Shown here piece after piece: positions 1,683 through 59,830 of a stretch of 64,000 bases of DNA. This stretch comes from Bacteroidales bacterium (lineage in GTDB: Bacteria; Bacteroidota; Bacteroidia; Bacteroidales; VadinHA17), in assembly GCA_034004025.1 (NCBI GenBank), contig JAVEXM010000001.1, forward strand, positions 4,203 to 68,202, written 5' to 3'. Within the stretch, counting starts at the first letter, position 1. Every line of letters begins with the position of its first letter. The position numbers and the translations under genes are program-made. The notes beneath the pieces are model-generated. The model was given only the letters and a program-made list of their open reading frames with translations, was not told the DNA's origin and made no database searches.

Positions 1683-1717
1683 AAAAAAGGAGGGAAGCCA
1701 AAGCCACCCTCCTTTTT
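1683..1717. terminator. bidirectional rho-independent terminator hairpin between the convergent xdh-like and susD-like genes
   Basis: aaaaaaggaggg (1683-1694) pairs with ccctccttttt (1707-1717) across a 12-nt loop. A-run and T-run flanks give a U-tract on both strands. Confidence 0.75.
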
Positions 1718-1736: not shown

Positions 1737-3179
1737 CTATTTACCTGCTGAATACCACGAGTTCTGCTCAAGGAGATTATTGACCTCCATCTCGCGGAAG
1801 GGTATGGGAAGTATAAGGTTACCGGCATCGTATGCAAAGCCACCGATATTCATCTCCCACCTCTTGAGGTCATGCAGACGGTGCCCTTCCCAGCAAAGTT
1901 CGAGGTATCTCTCCTCCCTTATCTGTTCCCGGGTCACTTCCGTAGTGTAAAGTGGCGCCTCGGCCCTGTCGCGGATAATGTTGATATCCTCTGTCGGGGT
2001 GTTCGGACCTACGTCTGCTGCAGGATTTTCGAAGTTGGCCTCTGCCCTTATGAGGTACATCTCAGCGAGCCTGATGAGGGGAATATTCCTATAGTAGTCG
2101 CCCCACTTGGAAGTGTTGATCCCACCATTGTTGAGGATTGTTCCAACACCCTTGTAATACATCATCGTGATATTATCGATAGTATATCCTGTCTCGGTAT
2201 CAGACTGATACATACCTCGAAGGTCAGACGGAGCGAACCTGTTGAGAAACACCTGCTGGATCTCATAGTCTCCCCTGCCTGCGCCGGCCAGGGATGCATA
2301 CATCACAGGCAGCCATCCAATGCTTGAGTTTATGTTCTTCTGAATGGCGAAGATGTCCTCAACCGAATTCTCTGCATTGTTGAAGGCTCCCAGTGGAGTA
2401 GCCGTCAGTCCGAACAGATCACTCTCTATGACCCTGTTGGCTTCATTGGCTGCCGAGGCCATGTTTCCCGTCTGGAGGTACAGCCTGGCAAGCACGGCGC
2501 TTGCTGTCATTGATGAGGCATAGACGCCGTTTTCGTCAGGCAGCAGGTCGCGTGCAGCGATGAGGTCCTGTTCCGCTCTCAGATAGCACTCCTCCACACT
2601 GTTCCTTGGCACCGGTACAGCATCTGCCACATCACTGGTGGGGGTCAGCACAATGGGAATACCCGGCTGGTTGTTTGACTGATTTGGCTCATAGGGAAGT
2701 CCGAAGATCCTGGTCAGTTCGAATATAGTCCAGCCCCTGAGGAACAGAGCCTCACCCTTAACCAGGTCGGCATCGTCGCTGTCCAGCAGCGCAATGACAT
2801 CATCCTGCAACAGTGTATTGCATGTGTTAATGAGACTGTAGGCCTCTGTCCAGGTATATTCAACGAAGCTGTTTGTTGTAGTGGCTTCTTTGTTGATAAA
2901 CTCACGTGGCTGCTGATATGTGCCCATGAATTTCAGGTCTGTAGTTGCGGCATACAGTTCACTGTACTCATTTAAGTACGATCCGAAGATTCCGTCGCTG
3001 CTTGCCTGGAGGTATGCACCCACCAGGGCAGCCTTTATGTTGTCAGGAGTGGTGAGGGCCACCTCTGCGTCGATTGACTGTTTTGGCTTAATCTCAAGCT
3101 TCTCTGTGCATGAGAACAGCATTGCCAATACCGGAACAATCAATATCCAGAATTTGTATTTGCTTATTATATTTTTCAT
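1737..3179 (-). CDS. SusD/RagB family nutrient-binding outer membrane lipoprotein
   Basis: 480 aa with a lipoprotein signal (..LAMLFSC TEK). It lies immediately downstream of a SusC-like gene, and its length and composition are typical of SusD-like proteins. Confidence 0.85.
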   Translation of the reverse strand: MKNIISKYKFWILIVPVLAMLFSCTEKLEIKPKQSIDAEVALTTPDNIKAALVGAYLQASSDGIFGSYLNEYSELYAATTDLKFMGTYQQPREFINKEATTTNSFVEYTWTEAYSLINTCNTLLQDDVIALLDSDDADLVKGEALFLRGWTIFELTRIFGLPYEPNQSNNQPGIPIVLTPTSDVADAVPVPRNSVEECYLRAEQDLIAARDLLPDENGVYASSMTASAVLARLYLQTGNMASAANEANRVIESDLFGLTATPLGAFNNAENSVEDIFAIQKNINSSIGWLPVMYASLAGAGRGDYEIQQVFLNRFAPSDLRGMYQSDTETGYTIDNITMMYYKGVGTILNNGGINTSKWGDYYRNIPLIRLAEMYLIRAEANFENPAADVGPNTPTEDINIIRDRAEAPLYTTEVTREQIREERYLELCWEGHRLHDLKRWEMNIGGFAYDAGNLILPIPFREMEVNNLLEQNSWYSAGK

Positions 3180-3197: not shown

Positions 3198-6100
3198 TTA
3201 GAATGAGAGGTTTATACCAAGAGTATAGGTCCTTGCCTGCGGTGCAGTGTAGAAATCATAACCCTGGATAATGTTGTTGTTCTGCGTTGACCTGCCGGCT
3301 CCCAGATAGTTTACTTCAGGGTCCCATCCCTTGTACTTTGTCAGCGTATAGAGGTTCTGAACGCCAACATAGACTCTTACTGAGGACATGTTAATCCGTG
3401 ACGTCAGACTCTTGGGCAGTGTATAACCCAGGTTCACGTTTCTGAACCTGACATATGAACCGTCTGAGAGATATCTGCTTGACTCCTTCGTGCCGTTTCC
3501 GTCGCCAAGGCGTGCCTGGGGCACATCTGTGATGTCGCCCGGCTGTTGCCATCTGTTCATCTGGTCCACCGTCTGGTTGTCAAACCAGTCGCCGTTGGCC
3601 GACTGGTAAACACCGGCACCGTTGTAGATTTCATTGCCGTATACAAAGCTGATAAGCACGTTGAGATCTATGCCTGCATATTCAAAGTAGTTGTTGAAAC
3701 CGCCTGTAAAGTCAGGGTTGGGCGATCCAACTATCTGCTTCTCGGCAATGTTGTAGTTGTTTGTTGTCTCATCGCTGTCGGCGCTGATATAGTAAAGGGC
3801 ATCACCGTTTTCCGGATCCACACCTGCATATTTAACGATATTAAATACACCTATAGGCTGACCTTCCATAACATAGTTGATCGAGTTGGGTGTGATCTCA
3901 GGTCCGTTTATGTCGATGATGGTGTTCTTGTTAAACGCCATGTTGAAGTCTGTTGTCCAGATAAATTCACCGGTAAGGTTGTTTGAATGGATTGAGAATT
4001 CCACACCCTTGTTCTCCAGTTCACCCACGTTGCTCCAGACCCCTTCAAAGCCCGATGTTGCGGGAAGGGTTCTGTAAAGGAGCAGGTCAGTGGTTTTCTT
4101 CTGGTACCAGTCGAATTCACCTGTGATCCTGTTGTTAAAAAAGCCAAAGTCAAGGCCGAGGTTAAGCTGAGCGGTATTTTCCCATCCCAGTTCCCTGCTC
4201 TGCAGCTGCGTTACCTCCAGTCCTGTCCGACCGGCATAATTGACACCTGAATAGAGTGCAAGGTGGGCATAATCGGGAATTCCCGAGTTACCTGTGATAC
4301 CATAGCTGGCTCTTGCCTTCAGGTAGCTCAGGACATCCCTTATTCCTGACATGAAGTCCTCCTGGGTGATTATCCACCCGGCCGAGCCGGCAGGGAAGAA
4401 TCCGAACCTGTTGTCAATGCCGAATCTCGACGAACCGTCAACACGGCCGCTGAGGGTAAAGAAGTACTTTTCATTGATCTTGTAGTTTGCGCGTGCAAAG
4501 TAAGAGAGATATGAGGTAGCTTCCTCCCATCCACCGTAGGTAGTTACCTCGGCAGCGTTGCTTATGTTGGTAAAATCATCAGTAGGAAATCCTTTGCCGA
4601 CGATATCTGAACCAATGCTGTTTGACTGCTGGTATGACATACCTCCCACGAGGTTGATATGGTGAACGCCAAGCGTCTTTATATAGGTCAGGTAGTTTTC
4701 CCAGTTATAGTTGATAACCCTGACAGAACGGTTCTGTGCTTCACCTGCCGGTCCGCCGGTGATTGTCTCCCTGCCCCAGAAATTCTTCTCCCTAAGGTCA
4801 TATATGTCAGTACCAAACTCGCTCTTGAAGGAAAGGTCCTTATAAATCTTGTAGGCAGCATAGATGTTTGCCAGCGACCTGAACGATGTCTGGTTGTTGG
4901 TTTCGTCCCTGAGGGATATAAGGCTGTTATAATAAATGGTCTCAGTATTCAGCTCGCCTGTCTCCGGATCATAGACAGGGGTGAGGGGCGACTGTGCCAC
5001 GAGCTGCAGCGGGGTAGCGAATGCGTTGTCGTTCTGCACGCGTTCCATCTCAGTGCGGATGACGTTCATCTGCATGCCGAAGCTGAACTTTTCGGTAGCC
5101 TGCTGGTCAAGGTTGAGCCTTGCGCTCATCTTGTTCATGTTGTTGCCAAGAAGGATGCCTTTGGTATCGTCATATGAGAGGCCCGCATAATACCGGGTTT
5201 TTTCAGTACCACCAGATCCGGATACGTTGATCCTGTTGAGCGATCCTTTCTGAAAAGCCTCCTTCTGCCAGTCGGTATCGTAACCGTCATCCCATGTTGG
5301 GCCAACATACATTTCCCATATATCCTCCTTCGGAAGCCAATCCCATACCAGTCCGCCAACGGAGACGTTCTCCATGGACTCATTGAAGAGCTCAAGGTAC
5401 TGGTCGGCATTCAGCCACTCAACCATCCGGCTGGGCTCACTGATACCGGTAGTATACTGTACATCAAATTTTGTGGCACCCGCCTTGCCTCTCTTGGTCT
5501 GGATGATTACCACACCGTTTGAGGCCCTTGAGCCGTAGATGGCTGCTGCTGATGCATCCTTCAGGATCTGTATTGACTCCACATCAGTCATTGCAAGGTC
5601 AGCCAGCGGGCTGGTAGGCTGGTTCCCTGAATTGGAGAGGTTTTCTGCTGTGATAGGCACACCATCAACTACATACAGGGGCTGGTTGTTTGCTGAGACA
5701 GATGATGACCCACGGATCCTCATCTTCACCGTCTCGCCCAATTTTCCGCTGGCCTGCTCTATGAATACACCCGAGGTCTTACCCTGGATAGCCGACTCAA
5801 AGCTGGCAGAAGGGATCTCGGCTATACCCTTTGTCTCAACCTTGGTGATAGCTCCGGTGAGTTCCCTCTTAATGGCCGAACCATAACCAACGACAATGAC
5901 CTCATCAAGGCCCACATCATCAAGTTCCATAGTTACATTGATAACATTTCCGGTGCCGACCACAATTTCCTGTGACTTCATCCCTACATACCTGAAAACA
6001 AGGGTATTGCCAGGTTCTGCTGTGATGGAGTACTTTCCGTCCATGTCTGTGGCTGTTCCAACAGAGGTACCCTGGACAAGGACTGTGGCACCGATGACGG

Positions 6101-6336: not shown

Positions 6337-6888
6337 TCAGGCTGAGGCAGGCTTGCTTCTGCTGAAGAATGAGAAGTTTACGTTTCCGTATTTTCGGTGT
6401 TCGGTCAGTGATGGGTGTGAGGAGAAATCGAGTGATTTCGGGTGCTCAAGGATGAAGAGGGTGGCAGGGGTTACGGCACGGGAACGCAGCACCATGTCGG
6501 GTATCATTGTCAGCCACTTAAGGTCATAGGGTGGGTCGGCAAATATTATGTCATAGCTCTTATGGCATATCTTAAGCCAGTCGCGCACATCCAGCCGGTG
6601 TACCTTGGCTGATGTAAGTTCCAGGCTCTGCAGGGTGCGACGGATGAATTCACAGTTGCGCCTGTCGGTCTCAATGATGTCAATGTCGGTGGTGCCCCTT
6701 GATGCAAATTCATAGCTGATGGCTCCGGTGCCCCCGAAGAGGTCGAGCAGAGATATCTCGGAGAATTCGTACCTGTTGTCGAGGATGTTCAGCAGGCCTT
6801 CGCGTGCGAAATCGGTTGTGGGCCGGGCCTTGAATCCTGCCGGTGGCTCGATGAACCGTCCCTTGAGTCTTCCTCCGATTATTCGCAC
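6337..6888 (-). CDS. rsmD: 16S rRNA (guanine966-N2)-methyltransferase RsmD
   Basis: 183 aa. N-terminal MRIIGGRLKGR, SAM-binding LDLFGGTGAISYE, and the catalytic ADPPY motif. Confidence 0.85.
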   Translation of the reverse strand: MRIIGGRLKGRFIEPPAGFKARPTTDFAREGLLNILDNRYEFSEISLLDLFGGTGAISYEFASRGTTDIDIIETDRRNCEFIRRTLQSLELTSAKVHRLDVRDWLKICHKSYDIIFADPPYDLKWLTMIPDMVLRSRAVTPATLFILEHPKSLDFSSHPSLTEHRKYGNVNFSFFSRSKPASA

Positions 6889-7739
6889 GATGCTGCAGTG
6901 AAGAGATTGAGCCAGCGGTGGAGATGCACTTCATTCATTACATAACTGAAACTGTGCTTTATAAGCGGTACGGCGAATTTAATATTCTCCGCAAAGTTCA
7001 GGAGTGAGATATGGCTCTCACTGTAAGGCTCGATGGTTCCGCTGATATGAATCGTCTCCTCTCTTGCGATGCCTCTCCTGTCAAGCACGTTAAAAAGAAA
7101 ATAGCCAGTGTCAGTGACCGCGGAGCAGGCAAAGCTGTTGCAAAAGACAAGGTTCCTGTTCTCGGTTATGATGACCGTGATAAAGCTCTTTTCAAAGTGA
7201 AGGTGAATATATCTTTCATCAGAGGACCGGCATGCAGCCGAGACATGGTGCAGCAACGGCCTGGTGTGATGCCATGGTGTGACGTCGCGCCATCGTGAGG
7301 CAAGTGTCTCAACAACATCTGTCTCCGCAGAGAAGAGCACAACCCCGTCGGGAAAATCCAGCCTGTTTGAGTATATCTCCGTCTCTTCGGCGGAGTGATG
7401 GTTAAAGCGGAAATAATCTTCCTGGAGGGCAGGCTCGTATACGGGTGCGGGCACCATGGTGTAGCGAAGTGAAGGGACGGTGATGAATACCTTCCGGTAT
7501 TTTCTCTTCAGGAAGTCGTCAGCCTCTATGATTTCCCCGATGGGCCTGAGGGCTGTGTCATCAGGAATAGCTCGAGGGTAGTGTCTCAGCATGACATACC
7601 TGCCCCGAAGGAGGTCAAGAACCGCCAGGGAGACGCCCTCTTCAGAAAGTTCGAGTGTAAGGTCGTAATTGTCTGTCGCGTTTATGTCGAGGGTCTCGTC
7701 AAGGAGCTCCAGGGGATATAGCTGCGACCTGCTCATCAA
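6879..7739 (-). CDS. DUF3822-like protein (conserved Bacteroidota partner of rsmD)
   Basis: 286 aa, overlapping rsmD by 10 nt. The call rests mainly on remembered synteny and general resemblance, not on a search. Confidence 0.5.
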   Translation of the reverse strand: MMSRSQLYPLELLDETLDINATDNYDLTLELSEEGVSLAVLDLLRGRYVMLRHYPRAIPDDTALRPIGEIIEADDFLKRKYRKVFITVPSLRYTMVPAPVYEPALQEDYFRFNHHSAEETEIYSNRLDFPDGVVLFSAETDVVETLASRWRDVTPWHHTRPLLHHVSAACRSSDERYIHLHFEKSFITVIITENRNLVFCNSFACSAVTDTGYFLFNVLDRRGIAREETIHISGTIEPYSESHISLLNFAENIKFAVPLIKHSFSYVMNEVHLHRWLNLFTAASCE

Positions 7740-8371: not shown

Positions 8372-8449
8372 ATTTTTCCGATAGATTGTTGAGTAACTTT
8401 GTGCAAATTTATAAAAAAAGCAGACCGGTATACGGATTGTTGGAAGAAA

Positions 8450-9868
8450 ATGAGGAAGGAGAATATCTGCAATCTTCTGGAAAAGAATCTGGGATACATA
8501 CCTACCGCGGATCAGTCCGACTGCATGCGTCTGCTCGCGGAATTCATCGTTGCCAATACCAATGATGTGATCTTCCTGTTGACCGGTTATGCCGGCACGG
8601 GCAAGACCAGCGTCATTGCCTCGCTGGTGAGCACTCTCACCACTCTTCGCCAGAAATCCGTTCTTCTCGCACCAACGGGCAGGGCCGCCAAGGTTCTGAA
8701 ATCCTATTCAGGCCAGGAGGCTCACACCATCCACCGGAAGATATACAGGCAGAAGTCGGCCACTGACGGGGTGGGCAAGTTCGTTCTTGACCGCAACCTT
8801 CATAAGGACACATATTTCATTGTGGATGAGTCGTCTATGATACCCGATGAATCATCTGACGGCTCAATGTTCGGCAGCGGGAAGCTGCTTGAGGATCTGC
8901 TGGAATATGTATATACCGGCCGCGACTGCAAGCTGGTGCTTGTGGGTGACGTGGCGCAGCTGCCGCCGGTGGGGTCGATTGTCAGTCCGGCCCTGGATGA
9001 GAATGTGCTTCGCGCCACCGGTTTTGCCCTTGAGACCTTCGAGCTGCGCCAGGTGATAAGGCAGAGCGAGGGTTCAGGCATACTGATGAATGCCACCGCC
9101 GTGAGGCAACAGGTGAACGACGGAGACCTGTCGGTGCCGGAACTGGTGCTGCAGCCATATAACGATATTGAGAGGCTGAGCGGCAATGACCTGATTGAAA
9201 GGCTCAGTGAGTCATATGACAGGTGCGGTACTGACGGTGCCATTGTAGTGGTCAACTCCAATAACCTGGCCAACAGGTATAACCAGGGAATCCGCAACCG
9301 TGTCTTTTACCGTGAGGAGGAGATAAGCACAGGTGACATCGTCATGGTTGTCAAGAATAATTATTACTGGCTCCGCGACGAGGAGAACAGTTCATTCATT
9401 GCCAACGGCGATATAGCCGAGGTGCGAAGGATCAGGAAATTCGAGGAGATGTACGGCCTGCACTATGCCGACATGACGCTCTGGTTTCGTGATGCGGAGT
9501 TGGAACTCGATGCCAAGGTGATGCTGGACACCCTCACTCTGCCCACCCCGTCACTCACTGCTGAGAAGTCGCGTGAGCTCTATTTCACCGTTCTGGCTGA
9601 TTATCCTGAAATACGGTCGAAGCGTAAACAGTTCGAGACGGTAAGGAACGACCCCTACTATAATGCCCTGCAGATCAAGTTCGCCTATGCCGTCACCTGC
9701 CACAAGTCGCAGGGCGGACAGTGGGAGAGGGTCTTTATTGACCAGGGTATGTTCAACCGGCAGGAGCCTACCATCGATTACCTGCGATGGTTTTACACGG
9801 CGCTGACAAGGGCGACGGAGAAGGTGTACCTGGTAAACTTCCCGGATAGCTGGTTCAGTCGGCAGTAG
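8450..9868 (+). CDS. RecD-like ATP-dependent DNA helicase (SF1)
   Basis: Walker A GYAGTGKTS, Walker B FIVDESSM, and C-terminal AYAVTCHKSQGGQW. I prefer the ATG at 8450 over the TTG at 8399 given by the ORF track. Confidence 0.8.
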   Translation: MRKENICNLLEKNLGYIPTADQSDCMRLLAEFIVANTNDVIFLLTGYAGTGKTSVIASLVSTLTTLRQKSVLLAPTGRAAKVLKSYSGQEAHTIHRKIYRQKSATDGVGKFVLDRNLHKDTYFIVDESSMIPDESSDGSMFGSGKLLEDLLEYVYTGRDCKLVLVGDVAQLPPVGSIVSPALDENVLRATGFALETFELRQVIRQSEGSGILMNATAVRQQVNDGDLSVPELVLQPYNDIERLSGNDLIERLSESYDRCGTDGAIVVVNSNNLANRYNQGIRNRVFYREEEISTGDIVMVVKNNYYWLRDEENSSFIANGDIAEVRRIRKFEEMYGLHYADMTLWFRDAELELDAKVMLDTLTLPTPSLTAEKSRELYFTVLADYPEIRSKRKQFETVRNDPYYNALQIKFAYAVTCHKSQGGQWERVFIDQGMFNRQEPTIDYLRWFYTALTRATEKVYLVNFPDSWFSRQ

Positions 9869-10034
9869 CAGTCGGCAGTCAGCAGTAGCAGTCGGCAGTC
9901 TGCAGTACCAGTCGGCAGTCAGCAGTACCAGTCGGCAGTCGGCAGTAGCAGTCGGCAGTAGCAGTCGGCAGTCAGCAGTACCAGTCGGCAGTCGGCAGTA
10001 GCAGTCGGCAGTCAGCAGTACCAGTCGGCAGTAG
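9856..10034. repeat. CAGT-core 6-7 nt microsatellite array, locus 2 (27 units)
   Basis: The units are cagtcgg (x12), cagtcag (x4), cagtctg (x1), cagtag (x6) and cagtac (x4). A 40-bp higher-order block (cagtcgg cagtcag cagtac cagtcgg cagtcgg cagtag) occurs at 9909-9948 and 9962-10001. The helicase TAG stop (9866-9868) lies inside unit 2. Confidence 0.9.
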
Positions 10035-10047
10035 TCGTTTCAGCGAC

Positions 10048-10113
10048 GAAATCGCAAATCGCACATCACAAATTCGTAAGTCAGACATCGCAAATCCCAA
10101 ATCGCAAATCCCT
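10048..10113. repeat. second heptamer array with an AAATC core (about 9 units)
   Basis: gaaatcg caaatcg cacatca caaattc gtaagtc agacatc gcaaatc ccaaatc gcaaatc. The 7-nt period holds throughout, and the array ends about 20 nt before the next ORF start. Confidence 0.8.
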
Positions 10114-16233: not shown

Positions 16234-18366
16234 ATGAGTGAAAACAAGGAAAAGGTCGAAAACAAAGAAAATGAAGACCTTAATTTAACAGAGAGCGGAG
16301 CTGAGAATAAGGGCACAGAAGAGGTTGCCGCGGAATCAACAACTGAAGAGGTGTCCGAAGAATCAACAACCGAAGAGGTTGCCGCAGAATCAGCACCCGA
16401 AGAGGTTGCTGCAGAATCAACAACCGAAGAGGTTGCCGCAGAATCAGCACCCGAAGAGGTGGTTACTGAGTCGGCAGGCGAGATGGTTGAAGAAGAGAAA
16501 CCCATCCTGAAGGAAAAGAAAGAAAAAAAGGTGAAGGCTGGAGATGCTGATGCTGCGGTAGCAGCGGCAGCAGCGGCGGCATCACCTGAAGAATTTGACT
16601 GGGACGCCTATGAAAAAGGAGGCTTCACGGCGCAGTCGAGCCGTGCTGACCAGGAGAAGCTCTACGAAGAGACTCTCTCAACAGTGGCTGTTGACGAGGT
16701 TGTCGAGGGCAAAGTGATCTCGATGAACAACCGCGAGGTAGTTATCAACATCGGGCAGAAGTCCGAGGGTGTTGTCAGTCTGAACGAATTCCGCTACAAT
16801 CCCGACCTCAAGGTTGGAGATATGGTGGAGGTTTATGTCGACAGCCAGGAAGACAAGAGGGGGCAGCTCGTTCTCTCGCACAAGAAGGCCAGGGCTTACA
16901 ATTCCTGGGACAGGGTCAACTCGGCCCTTGAGAACAATGAGATCATCACCGGTTACATCAAGTGCCGCACAAAGGGCGGTATGATTGTAGATGTCTTCGG
17001 CATAGAGTCGTTCCTGCCGGGTTCGCAGATAGATGTCAAGCCCATACGCGACTATGACGTCTATGTTGGCAAGACCATGGAGTTCAAGGTTGTAAAGATC
17101 AACCAGGAGTTCAAGAACGTTGTTGTTTCGCACAAGGCTCTCATTGAGGCCGAGCTTGAGCAGCAGAAGAAGGAGATCATCTCCAAGCTTGAAAAGGGAC
17201 AGGTCCTCGAGGGTACTGTCAAGAACATCACCTCCTACGGTGTATTCATTGATCTGGGCGGCGTTGACGGGCTCATTCACATCACCGATCTTTCATGGGG
17301 CAGGGTCAACCATCCCGAGGAGATTGTACAGCTTGACCAGAAGCTGAATGTGGTTATACTTGACTTTGATGACGACAAGAAGCGGATAGCTCTCGGGCTG
17401 AAGCAGCTTACGCCTCATCCGTGGGATTCGCTCAGTGAGACACTCAAGGTTGGTGACACCGTCAAGGGCAAGGTTGTTGTGATGGCCGATTACGGTGCCT
17501 TTGTAGAGATCACCACCGGTGTTGAGGGGCTCATTCATGTCTCTGAGATGTCATGGTCACAGCATCTTCGCAGTGCCCAGGAGTTCATGAAGGTAGGCGA
17601 CGAGGTTGATGCGGTGATACTCACCCTCGACCGTGAAGAGCGCAAGATGTCTCTGGGCATCAAGCAGCTTAAGCCCGACCCGTGGCAGAATATCGAACAG
17701 AAGTACAGCCTCAATTCGCGTCATAAGGCACGTGTCCGTAACTTCACCAACTTCGGCGTCTTTGTTGAGATTGAAGAGGGTGTCGACGGTCTGATACATA
17801 TTTCAGACCTCTCCTGGACAAAGAAGATCAAGCATCCTGCTGAGTTTACCTCCATTGATGCGGAGATCGATGTGGTTGTTCTTGAGATCGACAAGGATAA
17901 CAGGAGGCTCAGCCTGGGCCACAAGCAGCTCGAGGAGAACCCCTGGGACGTGTTCGAGGATCTCTTTACCGTTGATTCGGTGCATGAGGGAACAATAATT
18001 GAACTGTTTGACAAGGGTGCCATTATAGCTCTTCCTTACGGTGTTGAGGGGTTTGCAACTCCCAAGCACCTGGTCAAGGAAGACGGCACGGCAGCTGCCG
18101 CTGACGAGAAGCTCGATTTCAAGGTAATAGAGTTCAACAAGGGTGCCAAGAAGATCATCGTGTCACACAGCCGTATATATGAGGACGTGAAGAAGGGTAC
18201 CGAGACCGCATCAAAGAGGTCGGAGGCAGAAAATACAAGGAAGGCAACCCGCAAGATCAAGTCCAGTCTTGAGAAGACAACGCTCGGAGACATCAGTGAA
18301 CTGGCGGCCCTGAAGGAAGAGATGGAAGAAAAAGAGGCCAGAAGTATAGGTAAAAAGAAAAAATAA
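16234..18366 (+). CDS. rpsA: 30S ribosomal protein S1 with an acidic repeat-containing N-terminal extension
   Basis: 710 aa. From about aa 125 (EEFDWDAYEKGG...) it reads as a canonical six-S1-domain protein. The N-terminal 120 aa or so are extra. Confidence 0.9.
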   Translation: MSENKEKVENKENEDLNLTESGAENKGTEEVAAESTTEEVSEESTTEEVAAESAPEEVAAESTTEEVAAESAPEEVVTESAGEMVEEEKPILKEKKEKKVKAGDADAAVAAAAAAASPEEFDWDAYEKGGFTAQSSRADQEKLYEETLSTVAVDEVVEGKVISMNNREVVINIGQKSEGVVSLNEFRYNPDLKVGDMVEVYVDSQEDKRGQLVLSHKKARAYNSWDRVNSALENNEIITGYIKCRTKGGMIVDVFGIESFLPGSQIDVKPIRDYDVYVGKTMEFKVVKINQEFKNVVVSHKALIEAELEQQKKEIISKLEKGQVLEGTVKNITSYGVFIDLGGVDGLIHITDLSWGRVNHPEEIVQLDQKLNVVILDFDDDKKRIALGLKQLTPHPWDSLSETLKVGDTVKGKVVVMADYGAFVEITTGVEGLIHVSEMSWSQHLRSAQEFMKVGDEVDAVILTLDREERKMSLGIKQLKPDPWQNIEQKYSLNSRHKARVRNFTNFGVFVEIEEGVDGLIHISDLSWTKKIKHPAEFTSIDAEIDVVVLEIDKDNRRLSLGHKQLEENPWDVFEDLFTVDSVHEGTIIELFDKGAIIALPYGVEGFATPKHLVKEDGTAAAADEKLDFKVIEFNKGAKKIIVSHSRIYEDVKKGTETASKRSEAENTRKATRKIKSSLEKTTLGDISELAALKEEMEEKEARSIGKKKK
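16318..16479 (+). repeat. in-frame 27-bp x6 tandem repeat (EEVAAESTT / EEVAAESAP units) inside the rpsA 5' region
   Basis: Six consecutive 9-aa units, EEVAAESTT EEVSEESTT EEVAAESAP EEVAAESTT EEVAAESAP EEVVTESAG, parsed by hand from 16318. Confidence 0.9.
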
Positions 18367-25161: not shown

Positions 25162-25201
25162 ATGCAGAGGGTGTCAGCCTTGCGGCCGGCACCCTCTGCA
25201 T
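25162..25201. terminator. bidirectional terminator hairpin between the convergent siaC-like and ABC genes
   Basis: A perfect 12-bp stem, atgcagagggtg (25162-25173) with caccctctgcat (25190-25201), and a 16-nt GC-rich loop. It is followed by tttg. Confidence 0.75.
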
Positions 25202-40807: not shown

Positions 40808-40831
40808 AACTCACATAAGGTAATAAGCCGG

Positions 40832-40859
40832 GGGTGTCTTGTAATTCAGAAAGACACCC
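40832..40859. terminator. bidirectional terminator hairpin between convergent genes
   Basis: A perfect 9-bp stem, gggtgtctt (40832-40840) with aagacaccc (40851-40859), and a 10-nt loop. The 3' flank tctttc is T-rich. Confidence 0.65.
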
Positions 40860-50497: not shown

Positions 50498-51934
50498 ATG
50501 AATGATGTTTCCCAGTTTTCAGCAGGTGTCTCGGTGCTTGAGATAACCTATATAATTGCCTCTGTCTTTTTCATCCTCGGATTGAAGATGCTCAGTCATC
50601 CCCTCACGGCAAGGAGGGGCAATATTATTGCTGCCATCGGCATGATCCTGGCCATTGCTGCCACCATACTGTTCCACCAGAAAGATGGGGCACCGATTGG
50701 CAATATAGGATGGATCCTGGCCGCCATGATTATCGGTACCGCCATCGGATGGATCATAGCCGTAAAGGTGAAGATGACAGCGATGCCTCAGCTGGTCTCT
50801 TTCTTTAACGGTATGGGAGGCGCTGCCGCTGCCCTCATATCAATGATGGAGTTCCCGCACATCAGCAGCGAACTTATTGCACGAACAGGCATGGCTAACG
50901 GTCATGTCCTGGCTATACTTCTGGGCCTGGTGATTGGGTCGGTCTCATGGTCCGGCAGCATGATCGCCTTTGGTAAGCTTGACGGCTGGATAGGTGATCT
51001 GAGGGTCAAGGCAATGAAATATGTCAATGTTACGATCCTGGTTTTTATAATCGCCTTTATTGCTTACATAATGACCCGTGACGTACAGGCCTCCTCGGAG
51101 CTGACTCCCCTGATACTGATTCTCTTTGCCGTTGCTGTTGCCTACGGGGTGCTCTTCGTGATGCCCATCGGCGGTGCTGACATGCCGGTGGTGATATCGC
51201 TGCTCAACAGCTTCACCGGCGTAGCGGCAGCTATGGGCGGATTCCTCTACAGTAACCAGGCGATGCTTACCGGCGGGATACTTGTCGGATCAGCAGGAAC
51301 CATACTCACAATACTGATGTGCCGCGCCATGAACCGCTCACTGCTCAATGTCATCGTCGGTGTCTTCGGTGGCGGCGGAGCGGCCGCAGCAGCAGAGGGT
51401 GGCACCGTAAAGGAGATAACCGTGTCAGACGCCGCCGTGCTGCTAAGCTATTCAAAGAAGGTGGTGATAGTGCCGGGCTACGGACTGGCAGTGGCACAGG
51501 CACAGCATATATGCCATGAGCTGGACAAGCTTCTGGATGAGAAAGGGGTGGAGGTGAAGTATGCAATTCACCCTGTGGCAGGACGTATGCCCGGCCATAT
51601 GAACGTACTGATGGCTGAGGCCGATGTTCCCTATGAACAGCTGGTTGAGAGCGACGAGGTCAATCCCGACCTTCCCAACACCGACGTGATCGTGGTCATC
51701 GGTGCCAATGACGTTGTTAACCCGGCCGCCGAGGATGATCCTTCGAGCCCGATCTTCGGTATGCCCATCGTAAGGGCACGTGACGCCAGAAACATCATCG
51801 TCATGAAGCGGGGAATGGGTAAGGGCTACGCTGCCATAGAGAACATGCTCTTTTTCAACGACAAGACCCGAATGCTCTTCGGTGATGCCAAGAGCACACT
51901 GCAGGCACTGGTTACGGAGGTAAAGGCGTTGTAG
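50498..51934 (+). CDS. pntB: NAD(P) transhydrogenase subunit beta
   Basis: 478 aa with a polytopic N-terminal part and a C-terminal dIII domain (VPGYGLAVAQAQH...GANDVVNPAA). Confidence 0.9.
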   Translation: MNDVSQFSAGVSVLEITYIIASVFFILGLKMLSHPLTARRGNIIAAIGMILAIAATILFHQKDGAPIGNIGWILAAMIIGTAIGWIIAVKVKMTAMPQLVSFFNGMGGAAAALISMMEFPHISSELIARTGMANGHVLAILLGLVIGSVSWSGSMIAFGKLDGWIGDLRVKAMKYVNVTILVFIIAFIAYIMTRDVQASSELTPLILILFAVAVAYGVLFVMPIGGADMPVVISLLNSFTGVAAAMGGFLYSNQAMLTGGILVGSAGTILTILMCRAMNRSLLNVIVGVFGGGGAAAAAEGGTVKEITVSDAAVLLSYSKKVVIVPGYGLAVAQAQHICHELDKLLDEKGVEVKYAIHPVAGRMPGHMNVLMAEADVPYEQLVESDEVNPDLPNTDVIVVIGANDVVNPAAEDDPSSPIFGMPIVRARDARNIIVMKRGMGKGYAAIENMLFFNDKTRMLFGDAKSTLQALVTEVKAL

Positions 51935-51936
51935 GG

Positions 51937-52031
51937 CAGTCGGCAGTCAGCAGTCGGCAGTCGGCAGTCGGCAGTCGGCAGTCAGTAACTAATTGATTGA
52001 CTGCCGACTGAAGGCTGAAGACTGAAGACTG
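51937..52031. repeat. CAGT/ACTG-core heptamer array, locus 3 (7 CAGT-oriented units, 12-nt spacer, 5 ACTG-oriented units) forming a 13-bp perfect hairpin
   Basis: cagtcgg cagtcag cagtcgg x4 cagtcag | taactaattgat | tgactg ccgactg aaggctg aagactg aagactg. The stem pairs 51972-51984 with 51998-52010. The array begins 3 nt after the pntB stop and ends 1 nt before the stop of the convergent gene. Confidence 0.9.
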
Positions 52032-52032
52032 A

Positions 52033-53139
52033 CTATCTCGCCAGATCCTTAATGACGTCAGAAATGTGCCCCCAATACCTTTTGTGGAACTTCAGGCTCT
52101 TTTTGCCCAGCATTGAATGATATGTCTGCGGCTCGTCTTCCGGGGCGAATTTAACTTTTGCACGGTCTTCATACAGTGATGACACCTCGGGGTGAAACTG
52201 CACCGCAAAGACATTCGGATACCTGACATGGGCTATCCCCTCTACCACCTTGCCATCCATCGAGAGGGCGGTAATATCAAAACAGAGAGCCACATTTTTT
52301 ACAGACTGGTGATGATGGCTGTAAACAAGTGGCTGAATGCTTCGCGATACCTTTACGGTTTTCCCGAAGAATCCGTGCTCAGTGAACCTGACCGGATGAA
52401 TGCTGCTGCTCATGTAGTCAGGACCTTCCTTCACTTTCTGCCAGTTGTTCCGATGCTGGTTGTCACGGTCGATCAGTACATGTGTCTCCGGCCTGTAGCT
52501 ACCGTATATCTGTGCAGGGATATCCTGGTACAGGGTGCCACCGGCAGCCACGTTCATTGTCTGCATCCCCAGGCAGAAGCCTGTTACCAGGTAGTCAGGC
52601 TTTTCAGTGAGCAACGGTGTGTAGGTTGTGTTCCGTGTGCTTCCCAGAAGATGAAACAGAAAGGTTACCTCAAAAAAATGTCTCCCCGGGTCACCGGTCT
52701 CGGAATACCAGTTTTCCTCACCGTAGACTGACGGAGGAATGTCCTCTCCTCCAAAGAAGAGGACTCCTACGGAATTTTTGAAAATCAGACGGAGGTCGTC
52801 ACTGCATGGGTTCTCCCTGTAAAGAAGATCCTCTGTAAGCGGTCCCTTGACTTCGTGAAGGTGATAATCCTTCATGCCGACGGAATCGATATACTTTGCC
52901 GATTTGGAGAAATCGTATTTCTGACTGGAGTGCCAGACACCCACAAAATCTATAATGTCGGTATTAATATCAAGCAGTCCGTTTTTCACAAGGTAATCAA
53001 CAACTCCGATGTTACCGACGGTTGGGTTTACCAGGATGACATAATCTTTCTCCCTGCTGAACTCTGCACGGAAGAAGTTCTGTGCGGAGAGAGGGATAAA
53101 CAGCGAGAAAATCGCCAGGCAGAGGAACAGTTTTTTCAT
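52033..53139 (-). CDS. exported class-I glutamine amidotransferase-like / peptidase C26 (gamma-glutamyl hydrolase-type) protein
   Basis: 368 aa with a signal peptide (MKKLFLCLAIFSLFIPLSAQ). It has the nucleophile region GFCLGMQTMNVAAGG, then HHQSV and QFHPE. Confidence 0.7.
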   Translation of the reverse strand: MKKLFLCLAIFSLFIPLSAQNFFRAEFSREKDYVILVNPTVGNIGVVDYLVKNGLLDINTDIIDFVGVWHSSQKYDFSKSAKYIDSVGMKDYHLHEVKGPLTEDLLYRENPCSDDLRLIFKNSVGVLFFGGEDIPPSVYGEENWYSETGDPGRHFFEVTFLFHLLGSTRNTTYTPLLTEKPDYLVTGFCLGMQTMNVAAGGTLYQDIPAQIYGSYRPETHVLIDRDNQHRNNWQKVKEGPDYMSSSIHPVRFTEHGFFGKTVKVSRSIQPLVYSHHHQSVKNVALCFDITALSMDGKVVEGIAHVRYPNVFAVQFHPEVSSLYEDRAKVKFAPEDEPQTYHSMLGKKSLKFHKRYWGHISDVIKDLAR

Positions 53140-58567: not shown

Positions 58568-59830
58568 ATGAAATCCATATTATATATGTTTTTTGTCCTG
58601 CTCCTGGCAGGATTCACCGCATGTGCCCCGAAGTCTGATCCCGGTCATAAATCAGATGAGGAACATGACCATGAGACTGTAACCACCGGTGCCCATGAGG
58701 ATGAACATGACCATGCGACTCTCACCACCGGTGCAGACGGGGATGAACATGACCATGCGACTCTCACCACCGGTGCGGACGGGGATGAATATGACCATAC
58801 AACTCTCGCCACCGGTGCGGATGATCATGAAACTGCGCATTTTGAGATCCTGACTATCACGAGGCAACCATTTTCTTTTGTTTTGAAGACCGGAGGCCGG
58901 ATCATGGCCGATAACCGGGATCTGGTCACGATCACTTCCAAATCATCAGGACTGGTGAAGTTCAGTGAGGATTTTTTACTTCCGGGAGTGAAGGTTGCGC
59001 GAGGAGAGTCGCTCTTTACCGTTGCCGGCGAACAGCTGGCAGATGATAACACGGATCTTAGATTCCGGCAGATCAAGTCTGATCTGGACCGTGCCAGAAT
59101 GAATTTTGAAAGGGCCGAAAAGCTTATTGTCGAAAAGATAATAACAGAAGAACATTACCTTACGGTGAGGAATGAGTATGAAAAGATTCGTAGCGAGTAT
59201 GATAATATTGCGGCCACATACAGTACGGGTGGGAGCAGGATAATCGCGCCGGCTGATGGCTACATTCGCGACATTCATGTTGCCGAGGGTCAGAAGGTCA
59301 CTGCAGGTCAGCCTCTGGCAACGGTGATATCAGGGCGCAGGCTTGTTCTCAGGGCTGATGTCAGGCCCGATGACCTCTCCACCGTTACATCAGTGGTGAG
59401 TGCCAATTTCCGGGTTGGGTACAGTGACAAAATATTCAAAACCGTTGATATGAACGGCCGTAAGATATCCTACGGCAAGAGTACGGGTGAGAGTTCTTTC
59501 TTAATCCCTGTCTACTTCAGTATTGATTATGACCCGGAGCTTATCGAGGGGACATATGCTGAGGTTTATCTCATCGGCAGACAGACAACTGATGCCTTGA
59601 CGGTCCCTGACAGTGCGCTTATGGAGGAGTTCGGAAGACTCTACGTGTTTGTGGAGCATGAAGATGGCGATTTTGGCAAGAGGTACATCACCGCCGGCTA
59701 CAGTGACGGGGAAAAGACCCTGGTGCTTTCAGGGCTTACTGAGGGTGAACGTATAGTTGCTTCAGACACTTACCTGGTCAAGTTGTCTCAGATGTCTTCC
59801 TCTGCGCCGGCACACAGTCACACCCATTAA
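58568..59830 (+). CDS. efflux RND transporter periplasmic adaptor (membrane fusion) lipoprotein with a His/Asp-rich N-terminal repeat
   Basis: 420 aa with the lipobox LLAGFTAC. The coiled-coil/barrel-sandwich body is typical of CzcB/CusB-like adaptors, and it is followed by a CzcA/CusA-type gene. Confidence 0.85.
   Translation: MKSILYMFFVLLLAGFTACAPKSDPGHKSDEEHDHETVTTGAHEDEHDHATLTTGADGDEHDHATLTTGADGDEYDHTTLATGADDHETAHFEILTITRQPFSFVLKTGGRIMADNRDLVTITSKSSGLVKFSEDFLLPGVKVARGESLFTVAGEQLADDNTDLRFRQIKSDLDRARMNFERAEKLIVEKIITEEHYLTVRNEYEKIRSEYDNIAATYSTGGSRIIAPADGYIRDIHVAEGQKVTAGQPLATVISGRRLVLRADVRPDDLSTVTSVVSANFRVGYSDKIFKTVDMNGRKISYGKSTGESSFLIPVYFSIDYDPELIEGTYAEVYLIGRQTTDALTVPDSALMEEFGRLYVFVEHEDGDFGKRYITAGYSDGEKTLVLSGLTEGERIVASDTYLVKLSQMSSSAPAHSHTH
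58655..58822 (+). repeat. in-frame 42-bp x4 tandem repeat encoding (D/G)(D/E)EHDH(A/E)T(L/V)TTGA(D/H)
   Basis: Units are DEEHDHETVTTGAH, EDEHDHATLTTGAD, GDEHDHATLTTGAD and GDEYDHTTLATGAD (aa 30-85 of the adaptor). Confidence 0.9.

Follow-up and report, generated by a model that had tools for sequence, protein, structure and literature searches.

An inverted pair of heptanucleotide repeat arrays fills the gap between the convergent pntB and Peptidase C26 genes of an uncultured Bacteroidales bacterium

The DNA analysed here is a single stretch of 64,000 nucleotides (the window), which we assign to an uncultured Bacteroidales genome on the evidence of its SusD genes and of C26 homologues that bear the name Bacteroidales. 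Within it, two convergent genes enclose a short intergenic gap. On the plus strand, pntB, encoding the NAD(P) transhydrogenase beta subunit (50498–51934; Pfam PNTB, E 9e-175), has a translation ending in VKAL before a TAG stop codon at 51932–51934, and on the minus strand a Peptidase C26/class-I glutamine amidotransferase gene (52033–53139; Pfam Peptidase_C26 and GATase; the C26 gene hereafter) ends in DLAR before a TAG at 52033–52035. Direct reading of the sequence between them found the arrangement that an earlier note on this DNA had described: seven plus-strand heptamers at 51937–51985 (CAGTCGG, CAGTCAG, four further CAGTCGG and a final CAGTCAG), a 12-nt AT-rich spacer (taactaattgat, 51986–51997) forming the loop of a hairpin, and five inverse units at 51998–52031 (tgactg, ccgactg, aaggctg, aagactg and aagactg). 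Arrays and spacer cover 95 of the 98 nt from stop to stop, leaving 3 nt uncovered rather than the 4 nt previously counted. Tandem Repeats Finder (TRF) reported the left array as seven copies of GGCAGTC (period 7, 7.0 copies, 95% matches) starting at 51935, by which count it abuts the pntB stop codon, and gave 3.9 copies for the right arm. The inner right arm (tgactgccgactg, 51998–52010, plus strand) is made of GACTGCC-type units and is perfectly complementary to 51972–51984; the repeat search that recovered this 13-bp pairing, as the earlier note had it, revealed that the same arm can also pair perfectly with 51937–51949. The outer right arm (aaggctg aagactg aagactg, 52011–52031, plus strand) forms 5-bp helices with CAGTCGG units, separated by 2x2 mismatches. 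By TRF, both arms consist of head-to-tail 7-nt units in at least three copies, as heptanucleotide simple sequence repeats (SSRs) do, and, lying 12 nt apart on opposite strands, they constitute an inverted pair of heptamer arrays.

This repeat pattern is far above chance expectation. For CAGTCNNCAGTC, 24 copies were counted in the window where 0.21 would be expected, and all 24 fall within three CAGTC-type loci (locus 1, 1506–1661; locus 2, 9856–10032; locus 3, the junction element at 51937–52031), each of which starts no more than 12 nt from a stop codon. Heptanucleotide SSRs are typically present at several intergenic loci per genome, and here three were found in 64 kb. The junction sequence was identical in five independent assemblies from different samples and, over the part that it held, in a sixth; an assembly artefact is therefore excluded. 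The contig of the sixth assembly stops inside the locus 3 array, and altogether three of the six contigs covering locus 3 terminate at or near it.

Folded as RNA, the full element reaches −66 kcal/mol on the plus strand (z −7.8) and −50 kcal/mol on the minus strand (z −5.5), and folded as DNA it reaches −31 kcal/mol (z −5.8). The inner hairpin (51972–52010), with a stem of 13–15 bp, has an energy of −24.9 kcal/mol on the plus and −22.5 kcal/mol on the minus strand; beyond this perfect 13-bp core, interruptions break the stem at 5-bp intervals, and the loop spans 9–13 nt. The proposal that the right arm can pair with the left in several registers was borne out by constrained folds of −66.0, −64.4 and −63.0 kcal/mol, which place three registers within 3 kcal/mol. 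The element is the sole structured feature of the 98-nt gap, and this gap has the strongest folding energy per nucleotide among the intergenic gaps of the window (−0.56 kcal/mol/nt). A search of the whole window against Rfam at gathering thresholds returned no match, ruling out a known RNA family as the identity of the hairpin, and a tRNA and tmRNA search of the same window found none.

The two other CAGTC-type loci differ in layout. Locus 1 lies where a molybdopterin-binding-domain gene and a SusD-like gene converge; in the gap that separates them, five CAGTCTT-type units run straight into approximately 17 GACTGCC-type units. As the earlier note had stated, the distal AAGACTG and AAGGCTG units of the junction correspond, on the opposite strand, to the TCAGTCT and TCAGCCT units at 1506–1540, and the two loci share a composite architecture, locus 1 being the same layout seen from the other strand. 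Recurrence of that layout beyond the junction had been set beforehand as a test, and it was found both at locus 1 and in at least 120 metagenome contigs. When near-identical assemblies were compared (L134 and L136), the locus 1 array at 1543–1661 proved to have 7 additional nt in JGI 3300029797 and to lack 27 nt in ERZ926210, differences for which short-read assembly error is a possible source; with identical flanks on either side, these are changes of the kind that slippage predicts. Locus 2 (plus strand) is a one-orientation array with no inverted partner and a 20-nt higher-order period (CAGTCGG CAGTCAG CAGTAG). It begins within the last codons of a RecD/Pif1-like helicase open reading frame (ORF; 8399–9868) and provides its stop (TTC AGT CGG CAG TAG at 9854–9868, with the stop inside a CAGTAG unit), so that the helicase C-terminus might change with the number of units. 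Adjoining locus 2 is a plus-strand array of a different heptamer, AAATCGC (10049–10110), a unit that is also present at the pntB/C26 junction of two relatives (L130, 2668–2700; L632, about 3640–3680); the clade therefore re-uses a small heptamer vocabulary across loci. Two longer tandem repeats were also observed inside long ORFs of the window, one of 42 nt (3.8 copies, 58661–58821, ORF 58568–59830) and one of 27 nt (5.3 copies, 16318–16460, ORF 16234–18366), and these are presumably repeats of the encoded proteins.

Unit-number polymorphism at locus 1 and the overlap of locus 2 with the last helicase codons are both features that a phase-variation (contingency) switch, in which unit number turns a gene on or off, would be expected to display. 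For the junction we consider such a switch extremely improbable: contingency repeats sit in a reading frame or promoter, whereas the whole of locus 3 is enclosed by the two stop codons, where its length can change neither, and its length did not vary among the six assemblies in which it is covered, in one case partly.

The earlier note had further suggested that the array doubles as a bidirectional terminator, and this suggestion stood in part. The inverted arrays and the multi-register hairpin filling a convergent gap are as it described; a U-tract is missing on both strands, and the hairpin is inconstant among relatives. Like Rho-independent bidirectional terminators, the element is a stable stem-loop that is placed between two stops and is able to form in either transcript, its inner stem providing the stable GC-rich stem-loop just past the stop codon that is typical of intrinsic terminators. 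Unlike them, it has no flanking A-/U-tract, its loop is long, its stem is interrupted every 5 bp and it can pair in several registers. No U run follows the stem on either strand (tails ACUAUCUCGCC on the plus and CCCUACAACGCC on the minus strand), and a consensus terminator scan of 51935–52032 found nothing; together, these results rule out a canonical hairpin-plus-U-tract terminator. Ordinary GC stems with U-rich tails were detected in three other convergent gaps of the window (1683–1717, 25162–25201 and 40830–40859), so the genome does use the conventional terminator form, and the first of these, a hairpin with a T-run, lies directly beside the locus 1 array. Judged from the sequence, a terminator function is plausible, unproven and would be non-canonical. 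A stronger version holds that the element is a dedicated bidirectional transcription terminator, its arrays selected to stop polymerase arriving from pntB and from the C26 gene. The element's standing as the only structured feature in the gap, at the strongest energy per nucleotide of all the window's gaps, agrees with such a role. Against it, the missing U-tracts and the 9–13-nt loop are joined by the ordinary stems that serve other convergent gaps, by locus 1, where an adjoining hairpin and T-run leave the array unneeded for termination, and by locus 2, which has one orientation and no partner.

Comparison with orthologous junctions bears on the same question. Nine relatives with 62–89% C26 identity keep the convergent pntB/C26 arrangement (two of them, L128 and L129, share one C26 protein), and in eight of the nine the junction gap contains heptamer arrays. 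Their units differ, with CAGTCTT, AGCAGGC, GGCAGCA, GCGATTT and AATTAAG replacing one another, and the orthologous gaps are unalignable because of this unit turnover and of indels. A clear hairpin (RNA fold z ≤ −3.3) was found in four distinct genomes, with differing sequences: L127 (C26 identity 89%; CAGTCTT units facing GACTGCC units; z −3.6), L133 (85%; CAGT-core units on both arms; z −3.3), L128/L129 (83%; AGCAGGC units facing GCCTGCT units; z −4.4) and L132 (66%; a nested hairpin with no array; z −5.5). In three others the hairpin was weak, namely L130 (86%; GCGATTT 14-mers; z −2.4), L131 (71%; GGCAGCA units; z −1.7) and L632 (62%; AATTAAG and CAAATCG units; z −1.6), and in L631 (66%; GAGTAGG units followed by six GACTGCC/GATTGCC units) it was absent despite the arrays (z +1.7). 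Both arms were altered together in several genomes, including L128 and the window. The most persistent part of the junction was the GACTGCC-type units beside the C26 stop, which were retained down to 66% protein identity. Also persistent was the AT-rich centre: L631 has it in the orientation of the window, and L127 and L133 carry its reverse complement (at 13 of 14 bases in L133). In the comparison with orthologues that the earlier note had proposed, heptamer arrays were present in eight of nine relatives and a clear hairpin in only about half.

For a terminator under selection, the co-changing arms of L128 and the window and the significant hairpins of different sequence in L127, L128/L129, L132 and L133 are encouraging, but arrays lacking a hairpin altogether (L631) or forming only weak ones (L632, L131 and L130) are not what it predicts, and overall we regard a dedicated terminator as possible but doubtful. 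As arrays are kept across relatives while the hairpin varies, it is the repeat process that is persistent and not the hairpin. Elsewhere in the relatives, heptamer arrays were also observed right after the stop codons of other genes, in L128 at 6489–6539 and 5022–5050 and in L129 at about 2931–3015 (units GGCAATG/GGCAATA/GGCAAAA, and GATTTGA), and one such L129 array is broken by an N run marking an assembly gap.

How general the 7-nt period is was gauged from about 1 Mb of loci drawn from a scan for CAGTCNN units, in which arrays were called by TRF. This sample held 252 period-7 and 69 period-14 arrays, with every other period at 28 or fewer, and half of the period-7 arrays were built of units unrelated to CAGTC. 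In the low-GC loci, period-7 arrays were scarcer in divergent gaps (13 observed versus 26 expected) and commoner in convergent gaps (33 versus 25), a gap-class bias (p = 0.008, from statistics based on crude longest-ORF gene calls) that fits tolerance of arrays in promoter-free 3' regions. By eye, no bias in array orientation relative to transcription was seen in the genome sample. As a control, viral contigs, an imperfect proxy for bacterial genomes, were scanned for CAGTC and for three cores of equal base composition, giving 81 stretches for CAGTC, 64 for one control core and at least 120 for each of the remaining two; two of the control cores partly overlap each other. A special status of the CAGT core was rejected on this basis, the control cores being as frequent or more so in viral contigs. 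The exact inverted pair was found twice in viral contigs and a permuted control not at all, numbers too small to interpret. The name "CAGT-core array" used in the earlier note is accordingly too narrow, since the general feature is the 7-nt period and not a CAGT core. In agreement with this, heptamers have been described as outnumbering the other long SSRs in most of the prokaryotic genomes that were surveyed, with polymerase slippage as the proposed cause (Mrazek 2007, via PMC4679880 and PMC4692102).

The same unit is widely distributed nonetheless. When four CAGTCNN units were searched for in one genome per species, at least 120 matches were obtained, and those listed carry the labels Cyanobacteria, Acidobacteriota, Bacteroidota, Chloroflexota, Planctomycetota, Gemmatimonadota, Actinomycetota and others, with CAGTCGG arrays in genomes labelled as about seven phyla among the matches listed. 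The CAGTCGG/CAGTCAG mix of the window recurred in an Acidobacteriota genome (L110, GC 0.67; 1011–1085, 5065–5125, 5589–5656 and 6925–6971) and in a Chitinophagaceae genome (L081, GC 0.43; 1103–1177). In metagenomes, an inverted pair consisting of CAGTCGGCAGTC, 0–30 nt and GACTGCCGACTG was present in at least 120 contigs (L509–L628; GC 0.39–0.70 among the matches listed), with approximately four units per arm, a fairly regular size and variable loops. By crude longest-ORF calls that are most likely spurious, 52 of 114 non-redundant metagenome hairpins lay "inside genes" in GC-rich contigs. Among the papers searched for the unit dimer sequence, none contains it. As a separate observation, GGCAATA and GGCAATC were frequent outer units in the GC-rich metagenome contigs, with TATTGCC or GATTGCC as their counterparts in the opposite arm. 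A Planctomycetaceae contig (L014, 5716–5924) carries about 200 nt of contiguous heptamers in which the unit shifts gradually from CCCACTA via GACTGCC and CCACTGC to CCACTGA, a clear case of unit turnover inside one array.

Slippage alone fails to explain a shared unit and a shared inverted layout in very different organisms, and the persistence of GACTGCC units down to 66% identity exceeds what would be expected of a purely neutral microsatellite and may point to sequence-specific maintenance. One reading of these observations is that the array is a series of sites for a sequence-specific nucleic-acid-binding factor, the hairpin being secondary; candidates would be an OB-fold or cold-shock-type protein in which each domain reads about 7 nt, or else a DNA-binding protein. 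The CAGTCGG/CAGTCAG mix common to Acidobacteriota, Chitinophagaceae and Bacteroidales genomes points in this direction, as do the CAGTCGG arrays in about seven labelled phyla among the matches listed, the inverted pair in at least 120 metagenome contigs spanning GC 0.39–0.70 and the GACTGCC-type units retained beside the C26 stop across deep divergence, and binding by Csp, S1 or CsrA has been proposed for TAACTGA heptamers (MacGregor 2015, PMC4679880). Units nevertheless turn over freely at the pntB/C26 junction, arrays of unrelated heptamers are equally numerous in the genomes that hold CAGTC arrays, the control cores are as common as CAGTC in viral contigs or commoner, and no candidate protein was found, so that a binding-site array appears unlikely. 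We likewise find it improbable that GGCAGTC-type hairpins form one cross-phylum sequence-specific family, maintained or spread by a conserved factor or mobility mechanism. If this were true, the GACTGCC persistence, the shared CAGTCGG/CAGTCAG mix and the regular arms of about four units would be marks of a common 3'-end recognition system.

Among known systems, inverted pairs of this kind have been described in Xanthomonas, where 70–75 inverted GGGAATC pairs occur per genome and could form stem-loops (Rehm et al. 2015, PMC4692102). These arrays are mostly intergenic, typically about four units long and commoner between convergent than divergent genes, with repeat position and type (single or inverted pair) kept among Xanthomonas species while length and sequence vary (PMC4692102). 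The junction element resembles them in its tandem 7-nt units, its two nearby opposite-strand arrays, its intergenic position and the preference for convergent gaps. It differs in that the GGGAATC unit is rich in G-tracts and forms G-quadruplexes, whereas each unit here contains only GG rather than a tract of three and is no credible quadruplex former, and in its host, a member of the Bacteroidales rather than a gammaproteobacterium. Unit turnover and loop inversion at one orthologous junction, as seen here, were not found described for Xanthomonas in the available part of that source (PMC4692102).

TAACTGA direct repeats, reported from Beggiatoaceae, Cyanobacteria and some Bacteroidetes (MacGregor 2015, PMC4679880), are likewise intergenic heptamers containing ACTG or CAGT with a patchy cross-phylum spread that includes Bacteroidetes, and they too break contigs and vary between strains by indels in 7-nt steps (PMC4679880). 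In their type organism they lie just upstream of start codons in the sense orientation, with a proposed role in translation, whereas the arrays here lie downstream of stops; only a single inverted set was reported for them (PMC4679880), and their unit differs from CAGTCGG. By both unit and position, the element falls outside the TAACTGA class.

Short tandemly repeated repetitive (STRR) heptamers CCCCAGT, CAACAGT and TTGGTCA were reportedly described in filamentous cyanobacteria by Mazel et al. in 1990. The CAGTCNN scan recovered CAGTCCC and CAGTCAA in Nostoc, Calothrix and Microcoleus; these are the STRR1 and STRR3 units rotated, with the CAGTC core common to both. Some cyanobacterial STRR 7-bp repeats form hairpins, for example in the hupS–hupL gap, and an effect on transcript stability has been suggested for these repeats (PMC2670836). 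Like STRRs, the arrays here are intergenic 7-nt tandem repeats with many loci per genome, some of them hairpin-forming; unlike STRRs, their units end in GG or AG, they occur in another phylum, and at the junction two arrays together take up a convergent gap in the form of a single long hairpin. With CAGTCGG, CAGTCAG and CAGTCTT units outside a heterocyst-forming cyanobacterium, they are not STRRs in the strict sense. The junction element is a compound inverted heptanucleotide microsatellite of an STRR-like class, and a Bacteroidales case of repeats already described.

For the way in which the hairpin may work, the best analogy is offered by the REP and BIME elements of Enterobacteria and Pseudomonas. 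These are multi-copy extragenic hairpins, often located in 3' regions or between convergent genes, and REPs shield upstream mRNA from 3' exonucleases without efficient termination. REPs consist of fixed palindromic units of 20–40 nt that are mobilised by RAYT transposases, whereas the arms here are variable-copy tandem arrays of a 7-nt unit. This difference weighs on the idea that the element is itself a REP/BIME-like or MITE-like mobile palindrome spreading among intergenic sites. Several loci with related hairpins in 64 kb, the breaking of other assemblies' contigs at the arrays and the fairly regular metagenome copies with about four units per arm would all suit mobility. However, there is no fixed palindromic unit, terminal inverted repeats with target-site duplications were not visible, and the junction flanks and loop are vertically inherited among relatives, which makes a mobile element highly unlikely.

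Overall, we favour, as the probable account, an STRR-like inverted pair of heptamer SSRs kept by slippage in a permissive gap, with the hairpin serving as a non-canonical 3'-end structure. Enclosed by two stop codons, the gap has neither a promoter nor a start site and therefore tolerates arrays, which probably arose there from a small palindrome that was already present. Replication slippage would add or remove one unit, or one higher-order period, at a time, and exchange between the opposed arms, through recombination or template switching, may have kept them partly complementary and occasionally flipped the loop. A read-out transcript of either pntB or the C26 gene would carry a very stable multi-register hairpin 2–3 nt past its stop codon; the folding energies behind this step were computed and the functional steps inferred. 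By analogy with REPs, the hairpin most likely acts as a 3' barrier rather than as a classical terminator, blocking 3'-to-5' exonucleases and hindering convergent read-through, while the repeats themselves would be maintained mainly by mutational dynamics and not by selection for termination.

The locus provides a clear Bacteroidales case of heptamer repeats, and one with practical consequences, such arrays being places where short-read assemblies of these genomes break. It also offers one orthologous junction that can be traced through ten genomes, in which units are replaced, arms co-vary in several, the loop changes orientation and the hairpin is present in some and missing in others, a history which argues that the repeat process, and not termination, is the persistent feature. 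Ultimately, the pntB/C26 junction is a concrete site at which slippage, arm-to-arm copying and effects on 3' ends can be measured.
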